This document shows, piece by piece, positions 520-19,411 of a DNA stretch of 32,000 nt; position 1 is the stretch's first letter; every line of letters begins with the position of its first letter. The position numbers were made by a program, and so were the translations under genes. Source of the stretch: Nostoc punctiforme PCC 73102 (GTDB taxonomy: Bacteria > Cyanobacteriota > Cyanobacteriia > Cyanobacteriales > Nostocaceae); assembly GCF_000020025.1 (NCBI RefSeq), contig NC_010628.1, forward strand, positions 2,040,001 through 2,072,000, given 5' to 3'. The notes beneath the pieces are model-generated. The model was not told the origin of the DNA. It made no database searches and was given only the letters and a program-made list of their open reading frames with translations.

Positions 520-1773
520 TTACTGCGACCACCTCCAGCCCAAGCGATCGCCATTTCCTTGTACTTCCCCCAGTCCCCTATCAGCCATAGAAGCAAAGAT
601 GATCCGCACTTCGTCCGGCTGCATACCATCGAATAGTCGGCTAGCTCGGCTGAGATGAGCGGCCTTTAAAACCTCTCCTGGGTGCTGTTGACCCCAGTTA
701 AGGATAAATTGCTCATACTCGTTCATGACCGAGGATTGCGATCGCGCCTCCTCATTTCCCCCGCCGGAGTTTTCCACAGGTGCGCTCGTAGTAGTTCCCC
801 AGTTGCTAAGGTCAAGCTCACAAGGGCAGTCATCGACCATAAACCGCTTTTTACCACCTGCCTTTAACCACTGCTCTAGTTGAGGATCTTTAAGTTTAGT
901 CCTGGCGTAGTCGCGCCCAAACTGCCCCAAACGGACGAGGCAGAAGCAGCTGTAAAGGGTGTCCTTGTCACCTTGTAACCCAAAGTTCTCTGCGGTGTCG
1001 TTTTGGGCCAGCGCACAAATGAATTGTTTGTATCGCCTGCCCCGTTTGGCGTGACGTTTGATCCAGGGGGTGGAATTGTCGCATTCATCCACCAAAACGG
1101 GGAATTCTTCAGCAATCATGAATCGCTCCCGACCGGTAATCGCGTTATCTCCCCCCTCTCCGCGAAGCTCCACAAGCTCCTCTAAGGTTTTGAGGTCATT
1201 ACCCATCGCGGTGTCTATGGCTTTGAAGTTGCCTTTGCGGCCAATGACATCGGCTTGATCCAGCCATGCCCAATCATCTGGTTTAGCGTCGCTGTCGTAG
1301 ACGATGACCCTGCCACCGATTTTGGAGGATAGATACTGGGTAAAGGTTGACTTCCCGTCGCCAGTTCCACCGACTAAGGCGACGTGTTTTTGTTTTTTCT
1401 GGATGTACTCAACTGGATCTGTAATCAGATTCTCTGGTTTCCAGTCTTGGTCAAAACTGCCTACGGTCAAGGCTAACTGTGCAGTGGTCTGTGTCTGGGT
1501 TCTAGCCAAAGCTTGAAAGTTAAGCCTCGATGCTCGGTCAATATCGCCTAGCGACTCCCGCAGTAATTTCGCTGTTTGGCGATGTCTGCGCCCGACTTCC
1601 AAAGTGCCAACTGATGCAGCCAGAACCCAAGTTTTACTCTGTCTGGGCAGCGAAGCACCCAAGGATAGCAGTCCGACGGTGAGAAGCAAGCTTCCCCAAG
1701 ATGACCACTTTGCATAGGCGTACATTTGCAAGTGCTGATGTAACTGTGATGGGTGTAAGTTTTCAGTCATCAC
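520..1773 (-). CDS. membrane-anchored P-loop NTPase, FtsK/SpoIIIE/TraB-like (FtsK-HerA superfamily) DNA translocase candidate
   Basis: 417-aa ORF. N-terminal hydrophobic segment WSSWGSLLLTVGLLSLGASL. Walker A is VALVGGTGDGKST and Walker B is FPVLVDE. AKRGRRYKQFICALAQ follows and resembles the FtsK-family R-G-R...Q motif. Confidence 0.7.
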   Translation of the reverse strand: MMTENLHPSQLHQHLQMYAYAKWSSWGSLLLTVGLLSLGASLPRQSKTWVLAASVGTLEVGRRHRQTAKLLRESLGDIDRASRLNFQALARTQTQTTAQLALTVGSFDQDWKPENLITDPVEYIQKKQKHVALVGGTGDGKSTFTQYLSSKIGGRVIVYDSDAKPDDWAWLDQADVIGRKGNFKAIDTAMGNDLKTLEELVELRGEGGDNAITGRERFMIAEEFPVLVDECDNSTPWIKRHAKRGRRYKQFICALAQNDTAENFGLQGDKDTLYSCFCLVRLGQFGRDYARTKLKDPQLEQWLKAGGKKRFMVDDCPCELDLSNWGTTTSAPVENSGGGNEEARSQSSVMNEYEQFILNWGQQHPGEVLKAAHLSRASRLFDGMQPDEVRIIFASMADRGLGEVQGNGDRLGWRWSQ

Positions 1774-1954
1774 TATCCCTCACGTATTCTTGAGCCTGCT
1801 TTACTACCCTCACTTCAGCTTCCGTGGCCCCAATAAGTGTATTGTCTGGGTAATACTCGCTCAGAATACTAGCAGCATTCTTGGCTAAGTCTTGCGGACA
1901 CCAAGCATCGGTCAAAACGCTGATAATCGCTGACTCAATATCTTTTTTACTCAT
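1763..1954 (-). CDS. small hypothetical protein (63 aa)
   Basis: The ORF overlaps both neighbours (11 nt and 4 nt) in a same-strand operon. No family recognised. Confidence 0.45.
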   Translation of the reverse strand: MSKKDIESAIISVLTDAWCPQDLAKNAASILSEYYPDNTLIGATEAEVRVVKQAQEYVRDSDD

Positions 1955-2313
1955 AACCCCAGTAACACCCCCACAAATATCAATCCAAGGCGGATCAGCA
2001 AGATCGTCTCAATCTCTGGAATGGCTTGCCTGAGATAACAAGCGATAACGCCTGATAACGCCAACATAACCATTACTCCCCAACGAATAAAGCTAGGCAG
2101 GGGAAGCGATACCCAGCTGCTGCTAAAAAGCGCCGGAATCGTTAGAGATGCTGTGAGGTCAAAAGCCAAGTCTGCCAGATTGTCTGGCAGTGCGATCGCA
2201 TTCCTCCATCCTTTTTTAAATTCCTCTAACCGTGACACTTGGGCTGTACTAGCGACTGGGGAATAACCCCGATCGCTGGGAACCTCTACGACTATTTTTT
2301 GCTCATCTGCCAT
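1951..2313 (-). CDS. hypothetical membrane protein (about 120 aa from ATG 2313; ORF track extends to a TTG at 2379)
   Basis: The C-terminal half is strongly hydrophobic (WVSLPLPSFIRWGVMVMLALSGVIACY... LLIRLGLIFVGVLLGL). ATG at 2311-2313 gives MADEQKIVVEV. Confidence 0.55.
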   Translation of the reverse strand: MADEQKIVVEVPSDRGYSPVASTAQVSRLEEFKKGWRNAIALPDNLADLAFDLTASLTIPALFSSSWVSLPLPSFIRWGVMVMLALSGVIACYLRQAIPEIETILLIRLGLIFVGVLLGL

Positions 2314-2421
2314 ACTGCACCTCGATTTTGAGGTAAAACGGGCAATTACTTTCCTGCTTGAGCAGCGCGGCGATCGCAATTACTAAAGCCGCTGTGGTGC
2401 AAATTAGGATCACTGCTTGAT

Positions 2422-2610
2422 TCACTCCTGCTCTTGCTCCTCTTCCTTTTCGCGGATTGCTTTCCAGGTTTGGGGGTAAGTTTTCTTACTCATCCGGCGA
2501 CTTTCTGCCTGGACTTCTGGTGGTTGTTTCTTAAGTTCTTCAGAAATTGCGATCGCGGCAATAAGCCAAGGATTAGTAGTATTATTTTCAGTCATAATTT
2601 TTGACCCCAT
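2422..2610 (-). CDS. small hypothetical protein with acidic C-terminus (likely start ATG 2595)
   Basis: The ORF is in an operon. An ATGACTGA start/stop overlap with the upstream ORF suggests translational coupling. The tail is EKEEEQEQE. Confidence 0.4.
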   Translation of the reverse strand: MGSKIMTENNTTNPWLIAAIAISEELKKQPPEVQAESRRMSKKTYPQTWKAIREKEEEQEQE

Positions 2611-2842
2611 CGCTGTACTGCCCGTAGCCGCTTGTATGAGTGAGTCTTTCCGAGATGCGGTTAATTACTGGGTTTTCGCTTACAGGTAGCGGCTTTCCCT
2701 CAATGTAAGCGGCTGAGATTTCGGCGCATTCCTCAGCGCTTGCGCCATTGCCTAGTAGCTGTCCCTCTGGGAACCCTGCGCGGTGAATTTCGTTACTGGG
2801 ATTTGGCTTTTGAGTCATATAATTTTTGGAGTGTGGTTTCAT
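2588..2842 (-). CDS. small hypothetical protein (alternative ATG at 2818)
   Basis: 84-aa ORF in the same-strand operon. No family recognised. Confidence 0.4.
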   Translation of the reverse strand: MKPHSKNYMTQKPNPSNEIHRAGFPEGQLLGNGASAEECAEISAAYIEGKPLPVSENPVINRISERLTHTSGYGQYSDGVKNYD

Positions 2843-2891
2843 TGATGTGCCGCATCTGGCGATCGCGTATCTGTGCGGATGGCGATCGCCT

Positions 2892-3260
2892 TTAAAAATC
2901 GGCTTTGGTGGCAGTAGTGCTGTTAAAAAGGGTTACAAGCCATATCTGCCAAGTTTTTCGCCTTGTTGGGCTAACTTCGATTGGTTGACGAGTATCAAGG
3001 CAAACTGCCCGTCCGTCATTTAGTTTGACGTAAAGGCTTTTCCCGGTTTTTGACCGAGAAAACAATTGACCGGGTTCTAAAGTTCCAAAGCCTACCTGAG
3101 TTCTGCCTACTACATATTCAGCTTGGTGAGAATCAAATCCCTCTGAGAGCGGATCGTCTGCCATCTCTTTCCACTCTCGTGGTCTGCCTTTGCGATCGCT
3201 CTTGTTGGTGGTCGATCTGCCGTTAGTAATGGCTCGATCTGTTATCTGTTGGTCGGTCAT
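2892..3260 (-). CDS. hypothetical protein (122 aa)
   Basis: ORF in the same-strand operon with a basic N-terminal region. No family recognised. Confidence 0.5.
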   Translation of the reverse strand: MTDQQITDRAITNGRSTTNKSDRKGRPREWKEMADDPLSEGFDSHQAEYVVGRTQVGFGTLEPGQLFSRSKTGKSLYVKLNDGRAVCLDTRQPIEVSPTRRKTWQIWLVTLFNSTTATKADF

Positions 3261-3343
3261 AGTGGGTTACAAATACCTCATGAGTTGGTCGATAGTGCCT
3301 CATTAGTTAGTCACGAGTGCTTCATTACTTGGTCGATAGTGCG

Positions 3344-3691
3344 TTAATAGTCACTCAATAATGTTGGTTGTTTTTGGTCGTCAATTGCTTGTATAGCAAT
3401 AGGTTGAGCGTTTTTTACCTCTTCCTGTTTGGTAGTTTTTTTCTCTCCTAGCAACCAACTTGCGATTTCTACTCCCAGAAATACGAGGTGATATTCGTCG
3501 AGAGAATCGCACACAGCAATGATTTGTTCGGGAATGTCCTCAAAGCAATATTCTTTATGCTGGTAGGCGATTGATGTCTGTTCCCTCAGTGCCAGGAAGA
3601 TTAGACTGTTTAACCCAGTGGCTTGAGCGCGGTTAAAGTTCTGCTCAATGTGGGTAATGATGTCAACTGGTTTTATGTCTGTTAGATTCAT
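3344..3691 (-). CDS. hypothetical protein (115 aa), first gene of the minus-strand operon
   Basis: ORF with ATG start, facing the divergent control region at 3692-4140. Confidence 0.55.
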   Translation of the reverse strand: MNLTDIKPVDIITHIEQNFNRAQATGLNSLIFLALREQTSIAYQHKEYCFEDIPEQIIAVCDSLDEYHLVFLGVEIASWLLGEKKTTKQEEVKNAQPIAIQAIDDQKQPTLLSDY

Positions 3692-3938: not shown

Positions 3939-4140
3939 CACTTTCCCCTAGCAGGTCTTTGGTATTTGCTCAGTGCTGGCAGGCTGCTATCTCTGTCTGG
4001 TTTGGGGTGGTATATCTTAGTTTTGTTCACACATAACTAATGCTAGTATAATGTACGAATGAAACCTGTCAAGCATTCTATTCGTACAAAATAAGTTTCG
4101 TTCATACAATAAAATGGGGGTGTTGTTGTGGTATACGCGA

Positions 4141-4338
4141 ATGGCCAGACCCAAGAAACTAGCAGAAGACTCTATGCGGGCAACTTTTTGGATCAGCGAG
4201 AAGGACTGGGAGGACTTCAGGCTTCAAGCCGAAGCTATGGGACTGAATCGCTCCGATCTAATCAGGTTAATAGCTCAAAGGAAAATCCCCTTGGGCGAAC
4301 AAACGAATACAGAGATACTCCTCCTGGGAAAATCCTAG
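4141..4338 (+). CDS. ribbon-helix-helix (CopG/MetJ-type) DNA-binding protein
   Basis: MARPKKLAEDSMRATFWISEKDWEDFRLQAEAMGLNRSDLIRLIAQ shows the strand-helix-helix pattern typical of RHH proteins. ATG at 4141 is in frame with the track ORF 4114-4338. Confidence 0.65.
   Translation: MARPKKLAEDSMRATFWISEKDWEDFRLQAEAMGLNRSDLIRLIAQRKIPLGEQTNTEILLLGKS
4326..4332 (+). promoter_or_regulatory. candidate -1 programmed frameshift slippery heptamer G_GGA_AAA
   Basis: The zero-frame codons are CTG GGA AAA TCC TAG (stop at 4336-4338). The -1 frame reads GGG AAA ATC CTA GAG and stays open to 4541. Confidence 0.35.
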
Positions 4339-4541
4339 AGCGGCTCAAATTGATCGAGGGTAGTTATCTATCGCATCTCAAGAAACTTGAACAGAAACTA
4401 GAATGCCAGCTAGATGAAACTAGGGGTGAAGAGGAAAGCTTTAAAGCTGCTATTCAAGAACTTGAACAAGAAATTTACAACTTGGTATCCACCTCAGACA
4501 GGTTAGAGCCGCCTAACCAAAATAACGGACACAACGAATAA
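4326..4541 (+). CDS. -1-frame coiled-coil extension of the RHH ORF, or a separate TTG-initiated ORF from 4350
   Basis: The -1 frame encodes ILERLKLIEGSYLSHLKKLEQKLECQLDETRGEEESFKAAIQELEQEIYNLV..., which looks like a coiled coil. It ends at TAA 4539-4541 directly in front of a hairpin terminator. There is no in-frame ATG after 4338. Confidence 0.4.
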   Translation, partial: GKILERLKLIEGSYLSHLKKLEQKLECQLDETRGEEESFKAAIQELEQEIYNLVSTSDRLEPPNQNNGHNE

Positions 4542-4626: not shown

Positions 4627-4995
4627 TTAGGGGTCTAATTGCGATCGCAGGTCATCCAGTGGTGACTCTAGCTTGTCCTCTTTCTGAGCGGACTCTTGCA
4701 AAAAAACCTCTGGGTTGTCAGGGATGAATTCTAGTCGTATACGAAATCGTCCTTTCTGCCAACCTCCGCCTGTTGTACGCAAAATCTCACACTCTCGCCC
4801 TTGGTCGAAAAACCATTGAGACTCAGCGCCCTTGTTGTTACTGTTCTTGTTTGACCATTGCTCTATTCCTTGAATTAACTGACCAAGCTTTGTCATTTTC
4901 TCCATGCCATAGTCTGCTGTCGTTAATGCGACAACATCATCAGTGGTCAACCCCAACCTACTGTTAGGGTCTAATCCAAATTTTTCGATACTCAT
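4627..4995 (-). CDS. hypothetical protein, possibly KGK-domain family (cyanobacteria-restricted)
   Basis: 122-aa ORF. GGGWQKGRFRIRLEFIPDNPE resembles my memory of the KGK-domain core. The family call is tentative. Confidence 0.5.
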   Translation of the reverse strand: MSIEKFGLDPNSRLGLTTDDVVALTTADYGMEKMTKLGQLIQGIEQWSNKNSNNKGAESQWFFDQGRECEILRTTGGGWQKGRFRIRLEFIPDNPEVFLQESAQKEDKLESPLDDLRSQLDP

Positions 4996-8289: not shown

Positions 8290-8665
8290 GCAGGCATAGT
8301 AAAACGCGATCGCCCTTGTACCTTGAGCGATCGCGCCGAATAGCTTTGAATACGACCTTCAGGGCATTCGCTCTAGAAGTGTTTGTCACTGCGATCGTTT
8401 TTAAAGATTGTATAAATTATTTTATTAGCAGATTCAGTACAGATACTTATATTATCTGGACTGAATTTCCGATGACTTCTTGTTTTGCCTGTCTCCAGGG
8501 TTAAATAGGTATACTTTTTAGCTTTCAAATATTCAATATCACTGTAATTTAGTCATAGCAACACATACGGTAAGTGAAACTACTTCCTCTTTTACATAAA
8601 AGTGGAACATTTACAGAAAATTAGAACCCGCATACAAAGGATTTATTCACTTATCAATCCGTTGT

Positions 8666-9007
8666 ATGACCACAGAACCTACACTAGTTCAAATTTTTGG
8701 GGCAGGGGCTGTCCAAGACAGTGCCAGCTTAACTATTCAAAAAGCAGCGTTGACTGCTGTAGGTTTGACAGCTAGCTCAAACAATAGTGCTGAATCATTG
8801 CTAATTGCACTTTTACTCGTAGCTAAAGAAAACCTGACACCAGAAAATCACGATATTAATCTCGATCAATCGGTGACAATCACTAATGGGGTTATCCCAT
8901 CATTTGTGGCACGCGGGACAAGCCAAATCCAATATCGCCAAGATACTTTTACCGTAGCTGTTGAAAAACCAGAAGGTTTAATAGTTATTGACCCAGATGA
9001 TTATTAA
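8666..9007 (+). CDS. paralog family member 1 (113 aa), unknown function
   Basis: Shares the pattern IFGA.A.Q....L.I.KA.L..VGLTAS..N.AE.LL.A.LL.AK..LT and the C-terminal DPDDY with the 10534-10866 product. The N-terminal half also matches the 9007-9375 product. Confidence 0.75.
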   Translation: MTTEPTLVQIFGAGAVQDSASLTIQKAALTAVGLTASSNNSAESLLIALLLVAKENLTPENHDINLDQSVTITNGVIPSFVARGTSQIQYRQDTFTVAVEKPEGLIVIDPDDY

Positions 9008-9375
9008 TGGCTTTTTCAATTTTAAATCTTCAACAAATCTTTGGGGAGAATGCCACACAGGATATTGACACTTTGATAATTAAAAAAAGTGACCTTATTG
9101 GGCTGACAGCTTCTCCTTCAAACACGGCTGAATCTTTATTAGTTGCCATTCTACTACGCGCTAGTTATGCTTTTGAAGGAAGTATCGGGGATGAGCATGG
9201 CAATAAATTATCTGATGAGCATGGCAACTCAATCGGCTACAGCTATAGAACATTTTATGAGTTTCTTAATGTTTTTATTTGGGAGCCAAAATATGTTGTT
9301 AGGGATGAAAATCAACTTTTTATAAAGGACACAATCGTTGCCGAATCCTATTCAAATCTCCCAGCTTGGGAGTGA
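9007..9375 (+). CDS. paralog family member 2 (122 aa), divergent C-terminal half
   Basis: TAATG stop/start overlap with the upstream gene. N-terminus QQIFGENATQDIDTLIIKKSDLIGLTASPSNTAESLLVAILL aligns with members 1 and 3. Contains an internal DEHGN x2 repeat. Confidence 0.7.
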   Translation: MAFSILNLQQIFGENATQDIDTLIIKKSDLIGLTASPSNTAESLLVAILLRASYAFEGSIGDEHGNKLSDEHGNSIGYSYRTFYEFLNVFIWEPKYVVRDENQLFIKDTIVAESYSNLPAWE

Positions 9376-9952
9376 AAAATTACAACCTGATGACACTGAT
9401 TTAATACCCATTCAGCAGGCTGATGGTATTACCAGACATATATCAAAAGAAAATCTGTTTGCTAATTATGCCCCAATATCACAAGCGCCCTCCGGCTCTC
9501 AATACATTCACTTGCAACATACAGTAGCTAGCGGACAGGGAAGTGGAGGTAAACAAAGCGTTCAGTGGACAGCTAGACCAATCAATACAATCAAGTTCGA
9601 TCAGACTGGTTTGGCGCTACTGAGTAATAACACTATTACCCTCCCTGCGGGGATTTATGTTTGTGACGCTGTAGGGCAGTTTTATGATTGTGGACTTATC
9701 AAGACAAGATTGCAAGATGTCACAAACGATGCAACATTAGGGCGTGGTTATTTTACCTACACTAATTGGGGTAGTATGATGTACCTCATTCCCTTAAAAG
9801 CCATATTCACTTTAGCTCAAAGTACTGATATTCAATTACAGTATTTTCAGGCTGGAGGTAATTACGACGGTACTTATAACATGGGTGCGCCGTGGTCTTA
9901 TCCAGGCGTACCGGAAGTTTTCGCAGATATTATATTAGCGAAAATAGGATAG
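9338..9952 (+). CDS. fibre/receptor-binding-like protein (204 aa, TTG start)
   Basis: The N-terminus IQISQLGSEKLQPDDTDLIPIQQADGITRHISKENL resembles the conserved N-terminal anchor of many phage tail-fibre/spike proteins. The C-terminal beta-rich part (ITLPAGIYVCDAVGQF...) is reminiscent of C1q/TNF-like fibre heads. Recognition is by pattern only. Confidence 0.6.
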   Translation: MPNPIQISQLGSEKLQPDDTDLIPIQQADGITRHISKENLFANYAPISQAPSGSQYIHLQHTVASGQGSGGKQSVQWTARPINTIKFDQTGLALLSNNTITLPAGIYVCDAVGQFYDCGLIKTRLQDVTNDATLGRGYFTYTNWGSMMYLIPLKAIFTLAQSTDIQLQYFQAGGNYDGTYNMGAPWSYPGVPEVFADIILAKIG

Positions 9953-9956
9953 TTCT

Positions 9957-10532
9957 ATGAGTTATTGTTTGGTTGATGACACTGCCGCATTACTTACCTA
10001 TACTGACGGCGACAATATTACCAAATCAGTAAAGTTTGTGGGTGCTATGCCGATAGATGTAGAAGTTAACAACATTAACAAAGAACACTTTTTTAGTAGT
10101 GGCAACGCTCCACTAAACCACTTTGCACCAGGCAGCATAACAGCAGTATCTTGTATTGGTAATTTTAGACAAATTGCCAGCAACCCATCTACAGAACTGC
10201 CATGTACTTATATTTTGGATAATGCTTTGATTACTGATAATCGCATTACAGCAGAGTATGACAGTCTCTATAGTGATAATAGCGGCGACATGGATTTTAC
10301 AGTTTCTTATATTTCAACCGAAAATATTATTCGTGCATTTCGTAATGGAGAAATAATTTATAAGGATGTTAGAAAAGCTCCCATTACTTTTAAGGTTGAT
10401 TGTATTAAAGATTCTTGTCCTGATGGATATTTAAAGTGTGAATCCGATAATTATCCCGGATACTGCTGCATTTCCTGCTCCGAACTTAAATCAACTATTG
10501 CAAATATAACTGCTTCTGTGAGGAATAAATAA
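9957..10532 (+). CDS. hypothetical protein with Cys-rich C-terminus (191 aa)
   Basis: ORF 4 nt after the previous stop. The C-terminus DCIKDSCPDGYLKCESDNYPGYCCISCSE has 7 Cys in about 30 aa. Confidence 0.65.
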   Translation: MSYCLVDDTAALLTYTDGDNITKSVKFVGAMPIDVEVNNINKEHFFSSGNAPLNHFAPGSITAVSCIGNFRQIASNPSTELPCTYILDNALITDNRITAEYDSLYSDNSGDMDFTVSYISTENIIRAFRNGEIIYKDVRKAPITFKVDCIKDSCPDGYLKCESDNYPGYCCISCSELKSTIANITASVRNK

Positions 10533-10533
10533 T

Positions 10534-10866
10534 ATGTCCGGTCAATCTTTAGCTTCTGTTTTAGGAGCAAATGCAACTCAAACTAGTTCTACAGTAACAA
10601 TTAGCAAGGCTGACCTCGCATCTGTAGGATTAACTGCCAGTGGAGCCAATGATGGTGAAGCAATATTTGCAGCAATAGTTTTATTAGCGAAACAATATCT
10701 GACAAGTTCTAACCAAGTTGCAATTCCGGCAATTCAAACAATTATTAATGATGTAGCCCAACCATCCTATGTAACTCGCAATGGGCAACTTTATAAGCGA
10801 GATAGCATGACTATTGCCTTTGATAAAGCAACTACAAATCCAGTACTAGACCCAGACGATTATTAA
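10534..10866 (+). CDS. paralog family member 3 (110 aa)
   Basis: Starts 1 nt after the previous stop. Aligns over its full length with the 8666-9007 product, including the terminal DPDDY. Confidence 0.75.
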
Positions 10867-10871
10867 TATTT

Positions 10872-13787
10872 ATGGCTGATTGTTGTTCTCAGATAAGTTC
10901 CCAATTGTCAGCGTTGCAAGCAGCAGTTGCAAATATTAAAGGAGTTAATGAAGATGCAATTGTGCAACGAGTTTTAGGTATTGTTCAGCCGCAAATTAAT
11001 TCTTTAAAATCTCAAGTGGCTGATGTTTACCGTCAAATAGCCCAAGACGCGATCCAAATTGGGAATCTTGAAAGCGAGTTGCACGATTTAGAAGCAAAAT
11101 TAATTGCTTTTGGGGCGGCAATTGCTGGATTAGTAGCCATTGCCGCCGCGCCGCTCATTGCCGCAGCACTTGAAGGTGTGTTTGCAGCGATCGCTGCTTT
11201 AGGGGCTGAAGTCGCTGCTGCTGTGGCATCGGCTGCTGGTCTTCAGGCTGAGATCGTTGTTTTAGAAGCTGAAATTGTGGGAATTGGGGCGACTGCTGGA
11301 AGCGCCCTAGCCCTAGCTACTGCTGCACAAGGCGAAATAGTCGTTTTAGAAGCTGAAATTGTGGGAATTGGGGCGACTGCTGGAAGTGCCTTAGCCCTAG
11401 CTGGAGCTGCTGAAGGTACGGCTGGAACCGCGCTAGCCCTAGCTGGAACTGCTGAAGGTACGGCTGGAACTGCGCTAGCCTTAGCTGGAACTGCTGAAGC
11501 GACGGCTAACTCTGCATTAGGAGCAGCGTTACCAGCATTAACACTGGCCCAAAAAGCAGACTTAACAGCAGATTCGGCATTAGGCTTGGCTGTAGCAGCT
11601 GAAGGAACGGCTGGATCAGCTTTATCAATTGCCGAAATTGCTCAAATTCTTGCTGGCACTGCTGAAGAGACAGCTATTGCAGCAGGCTCTACGGCATCAA
11701 CTGCTTTATTTACGGCTGAAACAGCTATGGCTGAATTGCAGCCAATAGCAGCACAAGTAGAAGCTCAACAGGTGGAGCTTGCATTTTTAGAACCACAAGT
11801 AAAAGTGGCCCTCAATTTGGGAACTGTAGCCGAAGGGGAAGCCGCCGCCGCTCTTGCTGCTGCTGAACTTGCCGAAGGTACAGCAGCGACAGCGCTTCAA
11901 CTTGGCACTGTAGCTGAAGGGGAAGCCGCCGCCGCTCTCGCTACAGCAGAACTTGCGTTAGCGACAGCAGAAACATCACTTGCTAAACCAATTATTCCAG
12001 GCCCTCCAGGACTTCCAGGAGAGCCAGGGGCACAAGGTGAGCCAGGGGCACAGGGAGAGCCAGGGCCACAAGGGGAACCGGGAATTCCATTGCCTCCATT
12101 GCAAGGACTTCCAGGAGAACCAGGGCCGCAAGGTGAGCCTGGCCCACAGGGAGAGCCAGGACCACAAGGGGAACCGGGAATTCCATTGCCTCCATTGCAA
12201 GGACTTCCAGGAGAGCCAGGACCACAAGGAGAACCTGGCCCACAGGGAGAACCTGGCCCACAGGGAGAGCCAGGGCCACAAGGGGAACCGGGAATTCCAT
12301 TGCCTCCATTGCAAGGACTTCCAGGAGAGCCAGGGCCGCAAGGAGAACCTGGCCCACAGGGAGAGCCAGGGCCACAAGGGGAACCGGGAATCCCATTGCC
12401 TCCATTGCAAGGACTTCCAGGAGAGCCAGGGCCGCAAGGAGAACCTGGCCCACAGGGAGAGCCAGGGCCACAAGGGGAACCGGGAATCCCATTGCCTCCA
12501 TTGCAAGGACTTCCAGGAGAACCAGGGCCGCAAGGTGAGCCTGGCCCACAAGGAGAACCAGGGACACCAGGAGAAGTAAACGTGACACCAGAAGAAATTA
12601 CTACTGCAATAACGGCTGGAATAGCAGCAAACTTTCCTCCGATCGCAGGCGAAATATTCTCACATAATTGTGTGACTAATCAAACTGAAACTTACCCTTA
12701 TGGAGGTTTGGGGCTGTATGGATTACAAGCACAAATTCAGCAGGTTAGTAATCAATTAGAATCAGTCAGCAAAACAATTTGCAGGACTTACAGAATTATG
12801 GGTGGTAATGACTGGTTTGAAGGAGAAAATCTTAATCTAAGATTTAATCCAGAACAAACTATAAAATCACAAATAAAAAGTTGTTACCAAGAATCTGCAA
12901 CGCCTCAAGCTGATATTACACCTCAAACAGTTCAAGTTCAGAACTTGCCACAAATGCTTTATAGCCTTCAAGCTGTGACGTGGCGTAGAGAGGGGTTACA
13001 TAAATTACCTATTAATGCGGCTCCTAGCCTGATGCCAAATATTACTCGTAATCCAGCAACAGGGGATATTTTAAATATTAGAGATTGGCAACCTCAAGAA
13101 TATCAAAAAATATCTGATAGCGTCAGTTTTAATGCTTATCAGCTAGGTCAATTCAAAGCTTTTATGGGTGAATTCCCACTTACTATTACTATTAATACGG
13201 AGGAAGGAGAAAAACAGATTTATATGGACAATGTGAGTGATGCCCTAGCAGAATTAGCAGGTATTAGTTTGCTAACGCATAATGATTTAGAAATTAATAC
13301 TCAGTTAGGAGTAAAAACCTTAATTGAAGTAGGAGCAACAAAAAATTCATCACTCATTACTCAAGACATAGCTTTTGCTAATGCTAAATATTTGGGATAT
13401 CAGCTTAACAAGGTTCCTAAATCAGTTAAAACTCTATTTACACCAGGTGAACAAGATATCAAAGCCTTCCTTAAAGAATCAGATCAGCAAATAATTACCT
13501 ACACACACAGAAACGGGCATCTAGAACATAAACTCAATACCTTGCTAATTAGCGCTGGCATCACTAAAGCTGCACTAACTGGTTTTGCGGCTCCAGGTGA
13601 TGATGTTATGGGGAGCATAATCGCTAAATCTGCACTAGGCCAATTTACAGAAAATGCTGATGATTGGAGGAAGTTTTTAGAGTTACTTAATTCTCCACCT
13701 GGTGACATGAAAATTGATGGTATTCCTCAGCTTGTCATTGAAGACATTACCGCTAGAGTTCAAGAACACTTAAGCAAACTAACATGA
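10872..13787 (+). CDS. 971-aa fibre protein: Ala-rich helical repeat region, interrupted collagen-like (G-X-Y) region, globular C-terminal domain
   Basis: The N-terminal third has repeats such as [19 protein letters not shown] x2 and [14 protein letters not shown] x2-3. Positions 12000-12578 encode GEPGPQ-type triplets in six blocks separated by five IPLPPLQ interruptions. About 400 aa of non-repetitive C-terminus follow. Confidence 0.9.
11250..11402 (+). repeat. two 69-bp near-identical direct repeats (84-bp period) inside the fibre gene
   Basis: Positions 11250-11318 and 11334-11402 both encode [23 protein letters not shown]. Confidence 0.8.
12000..12578 (+). repeat. collagen-like coding tandem repeats (93-111 bp units)
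   Basis: Near-identical DNA units encode [32 protein letters not shown]. They also create long spurious ORFs in other frames and on the opposite strand. Confidence 0.9.
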
Positions 13788-14665
13788 AAATTAATCCAGA
13801 TGGCAGCATTGATTTAGAACCTGGTAAAGATTATGTGCAAGTAGGTCAAACTACTCAATATCACGGTGCAAACCGTTGGTACAAAAAGCGTACATTCTCT
13901 AGCCAGTATGCTGAATCATCTGGAAGTGATGGGAAAACTTTACTAGGTAAATTGTTAGGCGGACTTAAAAGATTAGGTGGTTTCGCTCTCTCAATTGCTA
14001 ATGCTTTAGGAATCCAAATTAGTTGGACTTCATTATGGCAATTCTGCCAAATGACATCTTATACAATTTATAACTTTGATTGGAATCAGTCAGATGAACA
14101 ACTAAAAAGTCAAATTGAAGCTATTAATGGGATGATAGCTAATCTTGCAGGCTATATATTAGGTGATGTATCTATTCGTGTGGTAACAGTTGCAGTTATC
14201 GATGGGGTTCCCATCCGCTACCCAATAATTCCAGCAAGATTAGCTGTAGAGATTGCTAGAGAGAAAATTGCTGTTATTAAAGGAGACATCAAACATACAG
14301 CAGGTAAAAATATTGAAAATCAATTTAAATTTGGTATTCAATTAATTGGTCAATTAGGAGCGCAAAACCTTTTTTATCAATCAATTTTATCGCTTCGTAG
14401 CTTAAAAGCATTCGGTTTAGAACCAGTAGAAAAATCTGGTGAACGTTGGTCATTTGCAACAGAAGTTGACAAAAGAATTCAAAGTATTAAACCAAAAGTT
14501 CTTCAAGAGTTTGTTAAAGGATATCTTGGAGGGTTAGAAAATGCGTTTTGGGATCAGGGATATATCTTATCTATGGGATTAGATGATATTTGGGCAATGG
14601 ACGATTTAAGACACGAAGTAAACGACGGCGACCAAAAAGCTGTACGTATTAACCCAGATCCATAA
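13784..14665 (+). CDS. hypothetical protein (293 aa)
   Basis: ATGA start/stop overlap with the fibre gene. Contains a Gly/hydrophobic segment, [29 protein letters not shown]. No family recognised. Confidence 0.75.
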
Positions 14666-14666
14666 C

Positions 14667-15311
14667 ATGACAGGATTAGTAAAATCTCAAGGTGATATTG
14701 TAATTTTCGGTAGGCAGCGAGATATAAAGCTAGCTATTCTTCAGGCTATTTCTGCTCAACGCCAAATCTGGAATAAAGATGTAGGGCAAATTGTGGGGAT
14801 GCCCACCGAAGATTTACCACGAGCCAAGCACATGGATCGGAAGCTTGTGGTACTTTTTAAATCTGTAGAAAAACCACCTTGGCGAATTAATGGGATTAAC
14901 CCTAAAAGTGTGGATTACAGTATTCCAGATTGTAAACAAGGGCTAACATACGAACAAATAAAAGAAATATGCCGCGCTTTTACTTGGGGCAAATTTCGCT
15001 GTACGGCTTTTTTAGACAATGCCCGACAGATGGCAGTATATGCGGCATCAAAGGAAGAAGCTGAGGAAGTAATGCAACGGCTTGTGACCCTTTCAACTGC
15101 TCAGATTATTCGTCTCAGTGTGACTGAAGAAATTAAGGTTAATGTCAACCAGATTAAAATAGCAACTCGCGTTTACCCTTGTTATGCAACCTTGGTTACT
15201 GAACCAACTGATATTTTAGGCGTACCTGTTGGGGGAAAACAAGCTTATAAACGGAGACGACGCAGGCTTGACCTTTACCGACAACCAACTGATTTATCAC
15301 CACTGGGTTAG
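14667..15311 (+). CDS. hypothetical protein (214 aa) with basic C-terminal patch (KRRRRR)
   Basis: Starts 1 nt after the previous stop. No family recognised. Confidence 0.7.
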   Translation: MTGLVKSQGDIVIFGRQRDIKLAILQAISAQRQIWNKDVGQIVGMPTEDLPRAKHMDRKLVVLFKSVEKPPWRINGINPKSVDYSIPDCKQGLTYEQIKEICRAFTWGKFRCTAFLDNARQMAVYAASKEEAEEVMQRLVTLSTAQIIRLSVTEEIKVNVNQIKIATRVYPCYATLVTEPTDILGVPVGGKQAYKRRRRRLDLYRQPTDLSPLG

Positions 15312-15508
15312 ATGTAACAAATATTTACATACCATTTTTACCTAGACGTTTTAATGGACTAGTCAGATTTTCCACCCATAGGGTGGTTACATCCCTAATA
15401 GCTTATAATCCTTGTGCAGTAAGCGGTTTATCTGCCTATAAATTTACTCTTGTCATTCAGTTTCTACATATCATAATTTGTAAAAAGAAATACAAATTAA
15501 TTACTGAT

Positions 15509-15865
15509 ATGACAGCTAGAACCGATCTAACTTTTCAAGAGCTTGAGACTGCCCTTGCTGCTAATGGATTGACAAATGCTCTTACTGTAATTTCTGGGAA
15601 ATTATACGTTGATATTAGTGTAGTTAACGGCGTTACCGTTGCGGATCTAACTGTTGAAGGAGTAGCGGAACTTTTATATAAACTTCGTATTGCTGCTGGC
15701 AATGCTCAATCAACAGTTAACGCTGCTCTTTCAACTGGTGAACAATTGGCTTCTTACCCTCCTTTCAGTTATGGCCCGCCAATAAGCGGCAAAGTTTCAG
15801 TTACTCATGTCTCTACTTTCTTGATTCCTCTCAATGAAAATACAATTACTTCTCCTAACGTTTAA
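15509..15865 (+). CDS. hypothetical protein (118 aa from ATG 15509), possibly a distant relative of the three-paralog family
   Basis: The track ORF starts at 15383, but its first 42 codons look non-coding. MTARTDLTFQELETALAANGLTNALT... has size and helical N-terminal character similar to the paralogs. The similarity is weak. Confidence 0.55.
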   Translation: MTARTDLTFQELETALAANGLTNALTVISGKLYVDISVVNGVTVADLTVEGVAELLYKLRIAAGNAQSTVNAALSTGEQLASYPPFSYGPPISGKVSVTHVSTFLIPLNENTITSPNV

Positions 15866-15915
15866 TTGACTTGAAAAAACGTTTAGTTGGTTTGAACAAT
15901 AATTAGGAGAACAAA

Positions 15916-16503
15916 ATGGTACGTAGACGAGGGAATAAAGTTCAAGCTTATGTCATTTTTAAAGGAAGCTTGAAGTATGGCTTTCAAATTAATGAAGGTT
16001 TTCACGAAACATACAAAAGTGAGTTAGGACAAACTACTTTTGCTGGAGCAGTTGGTGTATTTTTTGGTTGTAATTCACCAAAGCCAAATCGTGCTAGTAA
16101 ATTAATTGCTACGGGAAATATTTCTAGTTTTTGTTCCAGTGCCAGCGAGAAAAACTTACAAAAAGCTGGTTGGACAATAACTAGTAAAGGTTCAAATATT
16201 CGCGGTATTAAAACAGCCGGGTTAACAAGAACTGTTTATGTTCCGATGCCAGGTGGTTACAATTATGCCTGGAATATTACCGCAGCAGAAATATCTCATG
16301 CTGAGGAATTAGGAATATTAGAAGCCGCAGGGGATACAGCAAATTTAATCTGGGGTTCTACTCCTAAACCGCCAAGGGCATCTAAAAAAGATGCAAGTGG
16401 TACTGTTAGTACCTTTATTCAACCAAAGCAAAGTATTATCACTGGGGCTGTTGAAAAAGGCTGGAGCATTAGGGGCATAAATTATGCTTTGCTCCCAGAA
16501 TAG
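15916..16503 (+). CDS. hypothetical protein (195 aa) with internal sequence duplication
   Basis: AGGAGA Shine-Dalgarno 6 nt upstream of the ATG. The two halves share PKP.RASK..A.G..S.F....K.GW.I...RGI (aa 51-99 versus 147-189). Confidence 0.75.
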   Translation: MVRRRGNKVQAYVIFKGSLKYGFQINEGFHETYKSELGQTTFAGAVGVFFGCNSPKPNRASKLIATGNISSFCSSASEKNLQKAGWTITSKGSNIRGIKTAGLTRTVYVPMPGGYNYAWNITAAEISHAEELGILEAAGDTANLIWGSTPKPPRASKKDASGTVSTFIQPKQSIITGAVEKGWSIRGINYALLPE

Positions 16504-16735
16504 GATAATTATTCTTCCCGGCGATCCGGAGTTTGACTGGACTTTACAAACCTCAATCCCTCCCCTTTGGCGACAAGTAGCTCAACAAGATCCAGACGGT
16601 TTTGCATTTTGCGCTCGTGCTGGATCTGGTGTACTTGAACCAATGACGGATGAAGAATTAGAAGAATACCTTTATGGGGGAGAGTATGACGAACGACTAC
16701 AACAAATAGGGGAAGCTGATTTGGTGCTTACATAA
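16484..16735 (+). CDS. small acidic hypothetical protein (83 aa)
   Basis: ATG start overlaps the upstream gene by 20 nt. TAATG overlap with the downstream gene. Confidence 0.55.
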   Translation: MLCSQNRIIILPGDPEFDWTLQTSIPPLWRQVAQQDPDGFAFCARAGSGVLEPMTDEELEEYLYGGEYDERLQQIGEADLVLT

Positions 16736-17067
16736 TGCCGTGGCAGACAATTAGCGCTATTCAAGTAACTAATACTTGGCAGTTTACTGCACCTATCAAT
16801 GGTAATCTTTTTCGACTTAAACATAGCTTGCTTGGCACTGCACACGGCTTTATGTCTGGTTTGGTGTGCCAAGCAGCTTTTACTAATGAGCAAATAGAAA
16901 TTTACCAACCTCAAAAAATATACCCTAGAAATGAATTAGTAATTTTAGAATTTATTTCTCCTGCCTGTTTTTTTGACCGCAGGATAGGAATTAAAAAGCG
17001 TCAATCCAGAGAAATAAATAATTTGGTATGGATTGTTGAGGTAAGTATTTGGAACAATGAAATTTGA
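16735..17067 (+). CDS. hypothetical protein (110 aa)
   Basis: Translationally coupled ORF. No family recognised. Confidence 0.55.
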   Translation: MPWQTISAIQVTNTWQFTAPINGNLFRLKHSLLGTAHGFMSGLVCQAAFTNEQIEIYQPQKIYPRNELVILEFISPACFFDRRIGIKKRQSREINNLVWIVEVSIWNNEI

Positions 17068-17386
17068 CCCTAATGTAGCAAGTTTTATTCTAGCTTTTAT
17101 CGGTGCTTTATCTGGATGGGTTGCGTGGTGGGCTGGTAGGTTAAAGTTTGAACGCCAACAAGCAACCCAAGAAGCTGTAAAACAGGCAGAAAAAGCCTTA
17201 AATGAAGAGCGTGATTTCAACCACCTTAAGAGGAATCAAGAACAAATCTCAGAGGGAATTGCTAATGGATTTGATGGGATTGAGGAAATCCTTGAGGATC
17301 TTATGAAAGAAGTTTTAGAGATTAAATCCTACTTAATTCGTTATGGTGTAATCCCGGACGCAACACTACGTAAGAAGCAAGAGTGA
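17057..17386 (+). CDS. membrane-anchored coiled-coil protein (109 aa), holin/spanin-like by architecture only
   Basis: N-terminal transmembrane segment VASFILAFIGALSGWVAWWAG, followed by a charged helical region. It is the last gene of the plus-strand block. Confidence 0.6.
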   Translation: MKFDPNVASFILAFIGALSGWVAWWAGRLKFERQQATQEAVKQAEKALNEERDFNHLKRNQEQISEGIANGFDGIEEILEDLMKEVLEIKSYLIRYGVIPDATLRKKQE

Positions 17387-17405
17387 TTTTTGGAGAATAC
17401 TACAA

Positions 17406-17433
17406 ATCCCCTATATACGAGCTTGTAGGGGAT
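17406..17433. terminator. hairpin between convergent genes (ATCCCCTA / TAGGGGAT)
   Basis: 8-bp perfect inverted repeat with a 12-nt loop. The following T tract is weak. Confidence 0.3.
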
Positions 17434-17462
17434 ATAACTAATATATTGTTTGTTTTCTAATG

Positions 17463-17831
17463 CTATTGACAAGTTTTGTTTGCCATAGCTCCGCTTCCAA
17501 CTACAGATATTTGGTCACACTCTGAACCATTTTTTAGAATTTTGATTTCTACCGCGCCCTGATTACCTGTTGCTCCTGCCGCAGAAATCAGGGCATTTTT
17601 TGGAGCAGAGAAGTTAACTGTATAAGGGAGTGTGGCTGTAATTTTTTCTACCTTTGAAGGTGTACTTGGATTTTTGGAAACAATAACATAGCTTCCAAAT
17701 AGCTTGCTTCCATTAGTTCCAGTCCATTGAACTTTGTAGTTATCTAGCCCGCTGGAAGATACTGGATTAGTCAAAGGGCTACATCCTGTTAATAGTGTGA
17801 TTACAAATGTTAACCTTATTAGTTTTTTCAT
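17463..17831 (-). CDS. small secreted lipoprotein (122 aa)
   Basis: Signal peptide with lipobox, MKKLIRLTFVITLLTGC. Confidence 0.75.
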   Translation of the reverse strand: MKKLIRLTFVITLLTGCSPLTNPVSSSGLDNYKVQWTGTNGSKLFGSYVIVSKNPSTPSKVEKITATLPYTVNFSAPKNALISAAGATGNQGAVEIKILKNGSECDQISVVGSGAMANKTCQ

Positions 17832-18097
17832 TTGGGTGTAAATAGGTACAGACTTAACGTACCCAGATACCCTTTTATTCTTACTGGGGATTCACTCTAG
17901 TAATTTTGGGGGCAGGGGGCATAATCTCCATTTCGTCTCATGCCCGTGGGCCCCTCAACATAATTTTGTTCCCACAAAAAGGGTACAAAGTCTCTATTTC
18001 GTCACATTTTATTAGTCCAGTGGACTTTGATCGGTGTCCACTGGGCTGTGGGCTTTTACCAATATCGTTTTTGAGGTGCGATCATAGTTTATCAAGC

Positions 18098-19334: not shown

Positions 19335-19411
19335 AACTCAACTACGCTATTATGAAATTTAATAACTAATTAGCTATTAAAAAAATATTATACCGACTAT
19401 TAAATCTCCCT

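Follow-up and report, generated by a model that had tools for sequence, protein, structure and literature searches.

Small tailless membrane-containing phages, such as the PM2-like Corticoviridae, the Tectiviridae and the P23-77/IN93-like viruses, have genomes of 10-19 kb, integrated forms and small membrane proteins, and bear vertex spikes or fibres, some of them collagen-like, while their structural gene sequences are hard to recognise. They are defined by jelly-roll capsid proteins plus a packaging ATPase of the FtsK/HerA type. The tycheposons of Prochlorococcus reportedly act as cargo carriers that rely on other vehicles, and they are not known to carry the conserved fibre-rich module described here. 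Heterocyst-specific DNA interruption elements have been portrayed as gene-poor "phage remnants" with little common content (PMC4874684). In Anabaena cylindrica, a 5'-nifD element is deleted in heterocysts (bioRxiv 10.1101/629832).

The locus compared here with these systems lies in the window, the whole 32-kb stretch of Nostoc punctiforme DNA that was analysed. A block of 13 ORFs (g1-g13), all on the forward strand, does not stand alone but makes up the structural-type module within an integrated element of ~19.5 kb. The features of this module and of its borders are as follows, with related element loci cited by L numbers throughout.

8290..8665, no strand: intergenic, between replication and structural modules; HIP1 pair at 8306 and 8327 just past the VapE stop codon; promoter-like site at 8425-8453
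8666..9007, +: g1, 113 aa, small adaptor-type protein, paralogue of g5
9007..9375, +: g2, 122 aa, N-terminal ~55 aa paralogous to g1 and g5 (hhalign 97.7%)
9338..9952, +: g3, 204 aa, fibre protein with tail-fibre-type C-terminal domain (phrog_24210, 2e-6)
9957..10532, +: g4, 191 aa, Cys-rich C-terminal ~80 aa
10534..10866, +: g5, 110 aa, conserved adaptor-type protein
10872..13787, +: g6, 971 aa, collagen repeat (PF01391, 9.6e-23)
13784..14665, +: g7, 293 aa, helical, N-terminal half of a 480-530-aa protein
14667..15311, +: g8, 214 aa, alpha/beta, basic RRRRR tract in the C-terminal part, equivalent to the second half of that protein
15509..15865, +: g9, 118 aa, acidic core protein opening the second sub-module
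15916..16503, +: g10, 195 aa, basic, MxRRRG N-terminus, internal ~50-aa duplication (PKPxRAS...GW)
16484..16735, +: g11, 83 aa, strongly acidic core protein
16735..17067, +: g12, 110 aa; relatives have longer fibre proteins with a homologous N-terminal anchor domain
17057..17386, +: g13, 109 aa, TM segment at residues 7-25, then a charged helical tail
17408..17431, no strand: inverted repeat CCCCTA...TAGGGG (direct reading) between the convergent g13 and lipoprotein genes, probably a bidirectional terminator

Of the 12 junctions in the block, ten overlap or leave no more than 5 nt between genes, with coupled junctions at 9007 and 16735 (TAATG) and at 13784 (ATGA) and further overlaps of 38, 20 and 11 nt. 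A sequence-only reading of this DNA had described 13 coupled genes on one strand with gaps of 1-5 nt; the strand and those ten junctions stand, but g8 and g9 are separated by 197 nt (71 nt with the GTG at 15383 as the start) and g9 and g10 by 50 nt. Distant relatives have g9-g13 as a unit of its own. That reading also held that no product of the block carries a signal peptide and that the last one is membrane-anchored, and both points were borne out, the latter by the N-terminal TM segment of g13.

The largest product, g6, consists of an N-terminal "DCC" helix, a coiled coil, hydrophobic Ala-rich repeats, a collagen Gly-X-Y array and a conserved C-terminal domain of ~330-390 aa, whose identity is 55-60% within the Nostocales/Leptolyngbyaceae clade and 29-31% in distant elements. 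In L005, L013, L016 and L029 the module begins with a protein of the g5 type, which lies upstream of g6, and g5 itself scores 93% against a 104-aa protein of L010 in an hhalign-type comparison. The C-terminal ~80 aa of g4 are also found in proteins that precede g6 elsewhere (212 aa in L016, 190 aa in L005 and 182 aa in L010). The g3 protein is lineage-specific, having no orthologue in the other element loci. In most relatives g7 and g8 are one gene of 480-530 aa, and the g8 profile matches residues ~270-483 of the fused proteins with E-values down to 2e-75. The best-conserved core protein is g10. The domain represented by g12 opens longer fibre proteins elsewhere, of 255 aa with a phage tail Collar domain in L022 and of 271 aa in L013, and homologues of g13 occur in L010, L013, L022 and L023. 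Selection on the core genes is strongly purifying (dN/dS 0.02-0.09 at dS 0.33-0.79).

The rest of the element extends on both sides of the module, and on the left beyond the window:

about -1476 to -292 (window coordinates): tyrosine integrase, 394 aa (PF00589, 3.8e-15, plus Arm-DNA-bind_2)
1..234, -: 179-aa ORF, of which the window holds the 5' part, the rest lying past its left edge
520..1770, -: P-loop NTPase, 416 aa, Walker A GGTGDGKST
1763..3691, -: six small ORFs (62-142 aa), two TM segments in one of them
3260..3347, no strand: intergenic, a 22-nt unit repeated in tandem about four times, candidate iterons or operators
4128..4541, +: 137-aa conserved element protein, 39% identical to one in the Nodularia locus L004 (E 1.6e-22)
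4627..4995, -: KGK-domain protein (PF08872, 1.4e-15), orthologues in L004, L005 and L015
5097..5393, +: 98-aa conserved gene, accompanying the primase-helicase in L005, L013 and L015
5554..8289, +: 911-aa DUF3854 plus VapE-like (D5/P4-type) primase-helicase (PF05272, 7e-75; PF12965, 2e-32)
17463..17831, -: 122-aa lipoprotein, signal peptide plus Cys lipobox

The integrase side is the left end of the element: the order ATPase, 179-aa ORF, integrase and molybdopterin oxidoreductase is found in L018-L021, the host oxidoreductase gene begins 72 bp beyond the integrase, and L016 and L022 have homologous integrases. The unit is ~19.5 kb and not the ~17 kb proposed at first, its integrase lying outside the window. 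The HIP1-rich segment 1763..3691 is an early or accessory region, and a KGK-domain gene recurs in the elements beside the regulator/replicase region. The primase-helicase is the replication module of the element; its assignment to the same mobile unit as the block, already suspected from the sequence, is supported by its linkage to the module in L001, L005, L013 and L015/L016. On the right, the lipoprotein gene is kept downstream of g13 (orthologues in L001, L002 and L010/L011) and is the rightmost gene assigned to the element, which places the right end between 17832 and about 18097. A search for an att repeat at the window copy found none.

The left arm and the module differ sharply in their content of HIP1 (GCGATCGC). 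By exact count the 32-kb window holds 25 sites, the shuffle expectation being 0.15, and 14 of them lie at 184-8334, one at 11187 and 10 at 18960-30624, in agreement with the counts of the sequence-only reading. At the flank rate, 10.2 sites would be expected in 8341-17900 (Poisson P(<=1) = 4e-4). The GC content is nearly the same in the block (0.408) and in the right flank (0.402), so the gap has no explanation in GC. Since the HIP1-rich left arm belongs to the same N. punctiforme element, the block departs from its own element and not from the host alone. HIP1 poverty recurs in the structural module of related elements, although their remaining modules are rich in HIP1. It thus characterises this module alone and does not mark the history of the element versus the host.

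Virion hallmarks were sought by several routes. Among 135 proteins drawn from nine elements, scans against Pfam and PHROGs detected no capsid, portal, terminase or conserved packaging ATPase, the recognised domains being limited to tail-fibre, collar and collagen types, and the window proteins matched no capsid, portal, terminase, tail-tube or lysin family. Six profile or sequence searches of module proteins against the PDB, and a Foldseek search of the fused g7g8 model against the same database, likewise returned no capsid, portal, terminase or conserved ATPase; g3, g9, g10 and the C-terminal domain of g6 had no PDB match of any kind. The structure search covered the fused g7g8 model, the one protein modelled with confidence; a capsid fold may be hidden in g9, g10, g11 or the g6 C-terminal domain. 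This AlphaFold model (pLDDT 80.6) comprises a helical and an alpha/beta domain, and its one significant full-length structural match is a viral protein (BFVD A0A510E869, E 1e-5). The family had no match in IMG/VR, GenBank phages or PLSDB, and no publication describing the module was found. Profile, structure and comparative searches uphold a coherent fibre-rich module bearing no recognisable hallmark of tailed phages, microviruses or inoviruses; no ordinary tailed-phage proteins emerged, and the suspicion that the block was genuinely undescribed has held in these databases and in the literature searched.

The block is a fibre-bearing and probably particle-forming module. The best explanation, to which we give about half of our belief, is that it is the particle and host-recognition module of a temperate virus-like element of ~19.5 kb. 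In this scheme, the integrase would excise the element as a circle, which would be replicated by the DUF3854-VapE primase-helicase. Two transcription units, g1-g8 and g9-g13, would supply products that, carrying no signal peptides, may assemble in the cytoplasm. The particle body would be made of the most conserved proteins, g10 and g7+g8 (the split 480-530-aa two-domain protein), and the fibres, of the g6, g3 and g12 types, would be attached via the small paralogous adaptors g1, g2 and g5. Release, entry or exclusion might involve g13 (a TM segment plus helix), the lipoprotein and, in the Calothrix relative L005, a peptidoglycan-binding cysteine peptidase (PG_binding plus Peptidase_C39_2). 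Since a packaging ATPase, a portal and any known capsid fold are missing from the complete relatives, the putative particle would be of an undescribed type. Points against this explanation are the failure of the searches to reveal a capsid, portal, terminase or conserved ATPase, the absence of the family from IMG/VR and GenBank phages, the lack of an att repeat at the window copy and the integrated state of the element in the N. punctiforme assemblies.

The P-loop ATPase at 520..1770 bears on two other readings. It had been labelled FtsK-like, but its matches are below cut-offs (DUF87/HerA 0.0026, FtsK_SpoIIE 0.026), it has no relative in the PDB, with no segment reaching the TM threshold, and no homologue was found in the other element loci, including three complete relatives of 14.2, 15.4 and 15.8 kb. 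It is an accessory, weakly HerA/FtsK-like protein, and the proposal of a membrane virus with FtsK-HerA packaging therefore loses its key component. The same absence tells against a conjugative or cell-to-cell transfer element of filamentous cyanobacteria, in which a membrane-associated ATPase would pump DNA and the fibres would be adhesins. This reading, modelled on TraB of actinomycete integrative elements, is very improbable: the faint HerA/FtsK similarity, several small membrane proteins and the mostly filamentous hosts fit it, but Pfam/PHROGs scans revealed no relaxase, coupling protein or secretion component, and the family is also present in a strain named Synechocystis.

The family is cyanobacteria-specific and widespread, with elements of 14-20 kb. 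Relatives comprise 313 g10 clusters and 283 relatives of g7/g8, all named sources being cyanobacterial, and synteny is conserved across Nostoc, Anabaena, Nodularia, Calothrix, Leptolyngbyaceae and Timaviella. The shared orphan set consists of the g5-type adaptor, the g6 C-terminal domain, g7+g8, g9, g10, g11, the g12 N-terminal domain and g13. The module bears fibre or receptor-binding domains of several kinds. Relatives carry a tyrosine integrase, of the Arm or the XisA/C type, with a replicase cassette that varies between members; excisionase and CI/Cro-type HTH genes occur in some, and L013 has a DpdA-type DNA-modification gene. Between the window copy and L001, g7 and g8 are 97% identical in protein sequence, whereas VapE is 44% identical and differently placed, and such structural/replicase mosaicism is typical of viruses. 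Flanking genes differ and copies occupy different chromosomal sites. The 14,170-bp contig L022 has 17-bp terminal direct repeats resembling a tRNA T-arm, Timaviella carries head-to-tail copies 15,374 bp apart, and two metagenome contigs of 18.0 and 17.9 kb hold element genes only in the 15.8-15.9 kb available. The block is patchy in distribution, its loci vary and have integrases next to them, and excision of one relative has been shown by experiment, which is not the pattern of a syntenic core genome.

That relative is found in Anabaena cylindrica PCC 7122 / ATCC 29414, where a family copy abuts a nifD fragment and corresponds to the basal 5'-nifD element of 15.8 kb, the size left when the nested 59,225 bp are taken from 74,986 bp. 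It has the same module order (g5-like gene, 182-aa gene, g6-g13, lipoprotein), followed by small genes, a primase-helicase and an XisA/C-type recombinase. The window copy differs in lying outside the nif genes, next to the oxidoreductase, and in having an Arm-type phage integrase, not an XisAC_N protein. The family carries a conserved module, whereas the literature on interruption elements describes no such carriers (PMC4874684). Excision of the A. cylindrica copy only in terminally differentiated heterocysts would suit a domesticated or defective remnant whose module serves the host, perhaps as a bacteriocin-like particle with fibres, perhaps as a structure of the cell surface or of development, which we consider improbable; equally so is the variant in which the element persists merely as a developmentally excised interruption element. 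Also in favour are a degraded copy in Nostoc sp. 232, where g7, g8 and g10 are frameshifted, and the N. punctiforme assemblies examined, which have the integrated arrangement at every place shown, with no excised form and no alternative junction among 23 contigs per look-up. On the other hand, integrase, replicase and regulators remain intact beside the module in many lineages and at many sites, tandem copies and recurrent contigs of whole-element size exist, and the lack of signal peptides is contrary to a surface structure of living cells.

A P4/PICI-type phage satellite with fibres of its own is the main rival to a virus-like element. It would combine its own integrase, primase-helicase, regulators and adaptors with fibres that retarget the particle of a helper, a reading that we regard as unlikely though well above the other rivals; the accompanying proposal, held no more firmly, is that the orphan core proteins remodel or dock onto helper capsids and tails. 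An A. cylindrica gene is annotated "primase P4", and a sheath-containing prophage in N. punctiforme is a possible helper (PMC12691664), although no helper has been identified. P4-like and PICI-like satellites share with this element a tyrosine integrase, a P4/D5/VapE-type primase-helicase and HTH regulators within 14-20 kb, and the complete copies, like satellites, are devoid of capsid, portal and terminase. However, the hijacking genes of known satellites are few and helper-specific, whereas the conserved part of this family is a large orphan module of ten genes (8-9 kb) with interchangeable replicases; at least three fibre genes with dedicated adaptors are unusual for a satellite, and no Sid, Psu, AlpA, small-terminase (TerS) or cos-type component was recognised.

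The fibres invite comparison with tailed phages: tail-fibre and tail-collar families are matched by the C-terminal domain of g3, by the collagen stalk of g6 and by the 255-aa (L022) and 373-aa (L023) proteins. Unlike in tailed phages, these fibres come without baseplate, tube, sheath or tape-measure families, and their anchoring domains (the g12 N-terminal domain, g1, g2 and g5) are orphan. The small tailless membrane phages are approached in genome size, integration, small membrane proteins, collagen-like fibres and structural genes that are hard to recognise, but no jelly-roll protein was identified and no packaging ATPase of their type is conserved. Finally, tycheposons and this family are both integrative elements of cyanobacteria that combine tyrosine recombinases with primase-helicase modules for replication, and the likeness extends to L022, which is apparently bounded by tRNA-derived repeats.

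The element that includes the HIP1-poor block extends beyond the left edge of the window, as seen in assemblies reaching further in that direction. On the right, the lipoprotein gene next to g13, the last gene of the block, adjoins it in other elements too, and host signalling genes then follow. From the integrase/host boundary on the left and this conserved gene on the right, the element is estimated at ~19.5 kb. In window coordinates, it begins near -1.5 kb and ends at 17.8-18.1 kb, and it is organized as follows:

Left of the window, from the outside inwards: host molybdopterin oxidoreductase gene, 72-bp spacer, 394-aa tyrosine integrase gene, 179-aa gene
520-1770 (-): P-loop ATPase gene
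Between the integrase and primase-helicase genes: accessory leftward genes, then the KGK protein gene
5554-8289 (+): 911-aa primase-helicase gene (DUF3854 plus VapE-like)
8666-17386 (+): g1-g13, the structural module
17463-17831 (-): lipoprotein gene

The integrase combines PF00589 with Arm-DNA-bind_2. A unit of about 17 kb including the adjacent primase-helicase had been proposed in the sequence-only reading; the linkage to the primase-helicase stood, whereas the size had to be enlarged to take in the integrase outside the window. On the left, the window copy ends within the 72-bp spacer that separates the integrase gene from an intact 740-aa gene, not inside a gene that excision would restore; on the right, it ends after the lipoprotein gene and ahead of a response-regulator gene. 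No direct repeat of at least 12 nt linking the two ends (an att repeat) was found for this copy, and no excised form of it was seen in N. punctiforme assemblies. Promoter and terminator scans of the window did no better than shuffled sequences, and Rfam and tRNA scans of it were empty. The host flank at 20709-22945 encodes a partner-switching set, namely a STAS anti-sigma antagonist (20709-21035), a response-regulator-SpoIIE phosphatase (21079-22269, -) and a HATPase_c_2 anti-sigma kinase (22529-22945), adjoined by a 1559-aa CHASE3-PAS-GAF hybrid histidine kinase (23360-28039, -).

The element carries several sets of repeats. Within the primase-helicase gene (7473-7753), a 66-nt direct repeat (7473-7538/7560-7625, 92% identical) is followed by an inverted copy (7714-7753). 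The repeat accounts for a duplicated ENQKSLGNKADQGRSPGSL stretch in the linker that follows the helicase domain, and looks like a small in-frame, tolerated repeat insertion. The early region of the element has further arrays: about four 22-nt tandem repeats (3260-3347), a 42-nt direct repeat at 3772 and 3855, GTTGTCA heptamers (3892-3943) and, at 5066-5103, CCAATGC heptamers whose inverted partner lies at 390-415. These may serve as iterons or operators, or may be short tandem repeats of the ordinary cyanobacterial kind. Two ORFs, at 4114-4338 and 4128-4541, overlap in different frames; the 137-aa one is conserved in Nodularia, and the 74-aa product of 4114-4338 would read like a ribbon-helix-helix regulator (MARPKKLAEDSMRATFWISEKDWEDF...).

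The 13 genes of the module all lie on the + strand, and at 10 of their 12 junctions the neighbours overlap or are separated by no more than 5 nt. The earlier description of a tightly coupled array on one strand is accurate in these respects but not at g8-g9 and g9-g10, where gaps of 197 and 50 nt are found. Only two of the products have been recognized by Pfam or PHROGs: g6, through its collagen repeats (PF01391, 9.6e-23), and g3, through a C-terminal domain of tail-fibre type (phrog_24210, 2e-6). Two predictions made by eye were borne out, since g13 carries a transmembrane segment at its N-terminus and the module proteins lack signal peptides. The small adaptor-type proteins g1, g2 and g5 are mutually paralogous; g9 was considered as a further paralogue of g1 and g5, and rejected (hhalign 0.2%). 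The module genes are unmentioned in the supplement of a diel transcriptome paper on N. punctiforme (PMC12691664).

Hallmarks of virions, satellites and conjugative elements were sought with PHROGs and Pfam in 135 proteins from nine elements. The families recognized include tail-fibre, tail-collar, collagen, coiled-coil and DpdA, and none corresponds to a capsid, terminase, tube, sheath or lysin; in particular, no HK97-fold capsid family was matched either by the 13 window proteins or by the 135. PDB profile searches gave nothing for g7, g8, g9, g10 or the C-terminal domain of g6, and PDB profile or sequence searches nothing for g3, the window ATPase or a 486-aa protein of the distant element L022; sequence profiles were the sole test applied to g9, g10, g11 and the g6 C-terminal domain. 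The earlier impression that no capsid, portal, terminase or lysin is recognizable has therefore survived Pfam, PHROGs, profile and structure searches, none of which revealed ordinary tailed-phage proteins. Two apparent exceptions have been discarded. A phrog_21 "portal" match in a 419-aa protein of L023, another distant element, is confined to positions 1017-1322 of the 1362 in the profile, which form a C-terminal extension outside the portal domain. The other is a lysozyme assignment for g10: in the g10 homologue P0318 (228 aa, on a 1.7-kb NCBI contig), the last ~50 residues are replaced by a phage lysozyme C-terminal end (PF00959 positions 78-125), and the match covers only these foreign 48 residues. 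A chimeric gene call is the probable explanation for P0318, which may otherwise mark a recombination joint beside a lysozyme gene in some element.

The absence of capsid and terminase alongside an integrase and an own primase-helicase is also a feature of satellites, and the main rival explanation is that the element borrows the capsid of a helper and supplies its own fibres. N. punctiforme does have a sheath-containing prophage (PMC12691664), and no match to the Sid/Psu, TerS or cos/pac hijacking families was obtained among the 135 proteins; we regard a satellite as a doubtful but serious candidate. A conjugation-like element is much less likely than either a satellite or a virus-like element, and indeed highly improbable, because the same proteins include no relaxase, coupling protein, type IV secretion component or TraB-type translocase and the ATPase is not conserved. 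This P-loop ATPase had been proposed as an FtsK-type packaging component of the unit, a role that did not hold up: its matches to HerA (E 0.0026) and FtsK (E 0.026) fall below Pfam cut-offs, and no homologue is present in any related locus. In fact, complete elements of 14.2, 15.4 and 15.8 kb encode no P-loop protein besides the replicase, which indicates that the window ATPase is accessory.

No sequence match pointed to a major capsid protein of the double or paired single jelly-roll type, and the one fold that has been modelled is of another kind. The g7 protein is 100% identical to an N. punctiforme protein on an 8.23-Mb contig, and an exhaustive HMMER search with its profile retrieved 283 relatives, most of 480-530 aa, whose C-terminal halves are covered by the g8 profile; g7 and g8 are thus the split form of a single protein. 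In the window (13784-15311), one base separates the stop codon of g7 (293 aa) from g8 (214 aa), and the split is kept throughout the Nostocales/Leptolyngbyaceae clade. AlphaFold gave a pLDDT of 35 for g7 alone with 14 close homologues, and of 80.6 for the fused relative P0015 with 59 sequences. The predicted P0015 structure consists of an N-terminal long-helix domain and a C-terminal alpha/beta domain, and is not a jelly roll. Foldseek found no PDB match for it at E<=1e-3 (weak Hcp and flagellar-rod matches were not relied on), and its single significant full-length match in BFVD is a 443-aa viral protein (A0A510E869, E 1e-5).

The stretch from the g6 C-terminal domain to g12 is syntenic in two other Nostoc, Anabaena CCY0017, Nodularia, Calothrix, Anabaena cylindrica, GCA_029979785.1 (locus L013) and a Leptolyngbyaceae MAG. 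Identity to the window proteins across these genomes is 54-97% for g7, g8 and the g6 C-terminal domain; g12 is more divergent, and the module is always accompanied by a primase-helicase gene and usually by KGK, HTH and integrase genes. For example, two joined Leptolyngbyaceae contigs give the circular order VapE, integrase, module, leftward small genes, HTH, KGK, VapE. Four distant elements (L022, L023, L029 and L033) retain the g6 C-terminal domain, a fused g7g8, g9, g10, g11, the g12 N-terminal domain (in L022 joined to a Collar domain) and g13. The replicases of distant members vary: some have an AAA_25 helicase, others an orphan protein 486-529 aa long. The g10 family comprises 313 clusters, and every named source is cyanobacterial (Nostocales, Leptolyngbya, Symploca, Synechocystis, Myxosarcina, Xenococcaceae, Timaviella, Microcoleus); one homologue bears the source name Timaviella obliquedivisa. 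No relatives were found in IMG/VR, GenBank phages or PLSDB. Between the window and the Nostoc locus L001, dN/dS is 0.02-0.09 at dS 0.33-0.79 for the g6 C-terminal domain, g7, g8, g9 and g10; these genes are functional. That the element is a domesticated or defective remnant is unlikely, and less of a contender than the virus-like or satellite explanations. Two accessory genes of relatives, encoding a PG_binding_1 plus Peptidase_C39_2 protein of lysin-like architecture in Calothrix (L005:5238-6002) and a DpdA-type enzyme of 7-deazaguanine DNA modification (L013:3951-4835), would be supporting genes of virus type.

Mobility is apparent from several observations. The sequence-only reading had allowed that the block might be core genome, and its relatives instead occupy differing genomic contexts. 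The 14,170-bp contig of L022 ends in a 17-bp direct repeat resembling a tRNA T-arm, and Timaviella contig JAESGK010000010.1 (677 kb) carries, at 592731-628674, two copies in head-to-tail orientation with a spacing of 15,374 bp. Two independent metagenomes yielded contigs of 18.0 and 17.9 kb (15.8-15.9 kb of each examined) with an integrase, an excisionase-like HTH_17, an HTH_3 regulator pair, a replicase and the module, and with no recognizable host gene. When the window is compared with L001, the g7 and g8 proteins share 97% identity, whereas VapE shares 44% and is positioned differently, a contrast that amounts to module exchange. A decaying copy is present in Nostoc sp. 'Peltigera membranacea cyanobiont' 232 (L002:9000-13700), with g6 truncated and g7, g8 and g10 broken by frameshifts or deletions at a residual identity to the window of 80-97%.

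The window contains 25 copies of the HIP1 octamer (GCGATCGC), against 0.15 expected from dinucleotide shuffles, and exact counting reproduced the distribution estimated by eye, with 14 sites at 184-8334, one at 11187 and 10 at 18960-30624. At the flank rate, 10.2 sites would be expected in 8341-17900 (Poisson P of one or none = 4e-4). GC content has been ruled out as the cause (0.408 in the block, 0.402 in the right flank), and Ala-Ile-Ala is encoded by HIP1 in 3/3 cases in the left arm, 3/4 in the right flank and 1/4 in the block, small numbers that go in the same direction. The poverty on which a distinct history for the block was argued is thus real, but the contrast is also with the left arm of its own element, which has 14 sites over 8.3 kb. 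Across eight related loci, 2 sites fall in ~53 kb of structural module and 39 in the ~72 kb of other sequence, so HIP1 poverty is a conserved property of the module and not of the whole element; distant L022, with HIP1 within its module, is an exception. Shorter residence of an often-exchanged module and selection against the motif are both possible causes, and a HIP1-poor module joined to a HIP1-rich replication arm offers a natural experiment on HIP1 accumulation or counter-selection. Pairs of HIP1 sites 20-25 nt apart often lie exactly at module borders (window 8306-8334, L010:14330/14352, L015:6352/6375, L022:8828/8848) and may act as hairpin terminators or mark joints left by recombination.

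Another link involves a developmentally excised element. In A. cylindrica, the module begins ~320 bp from a nifD fragment (L010:5409-5900, -; PF00148, 3e-26; ending in ...HSWDYS) and continues to the primase-helicase and then to an XisA/C-type recombinase. A 74,986-bp 5'-nifD element is lost from heterocysts of this organism, and its "primase P4" gene is interrupted by a 59,225-bp element (bioRxiv 10.1101/629832). The difference, 15.8 kb, agrees with the span from nifD fragment to recombinase, and the primase gene is split in PCC 7122 and intact (1056 aa) in another assembly. From these coordinates and the gene content, we infer that the basal 15.8-kb 5'-nifD element is the carrier of the module. 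The primase-helicase gene (L010/L011 17298-20468) hosts the nested second XisA-type element (59 kb in PCC 7122), so that one element sits within another, which in turn sits within nifD. The link joins the excised nifD element to a widespread family with intact, purifying-selected genes and a virion-like module, and makes the long-standing idea of a viral origin of heterocyst interruption elements directly testable in the genetically tractable N. punctiforme ATCC 29133.

The absence of signal peptides, the several kinds of fibre with small adaptors of their own, the conservation of the module rather than the replicase and the lysogeny-type regulators point to a temperate virus-like element assembling a particle in the cytoplasm, a reading to which we give about an even chance for the window element. 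The particle body would be formed by orphan g10, g7 plus g8, the g6 C-terminal domain and g9, and would bear fibres of the collagen-like and collar types on its outside. More tentatively, the elements may be living temperate viruses of a new cyanobacteria-specific lineage, with an orphan-protein particle in which neither a portal nor a packaging ATPase nor any known capsid fold takes part. Should particles be made, they would consist of new components, as no capsid, portal or packaging motor is recognizable; and if this reading is true, some interruption elements are intact proviruses, one member being the A. cylindrica 5'-nifD element. In any case, a large and coherent family of cyanobacterial elements has apparently been overlooked by current virus-detection resources.

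The window element differs from tailless viruses of the PRD1/PM2 type, in which an FtsK/HerA-type packaging ATPase is conserved together with the structural genes, unlike the ATPase of the window. Finally, heterocyst interruption elements interrupt a gene that is restored by excision, which is the case for the A. cylindrica relative but not for the window copy; and they rely on a recombinase of the XisA/XisC/XisF type, which the window element lacks, whereas its relatives in A. cylindrica (L010) and L023 encode one with the XisAC_N domain.
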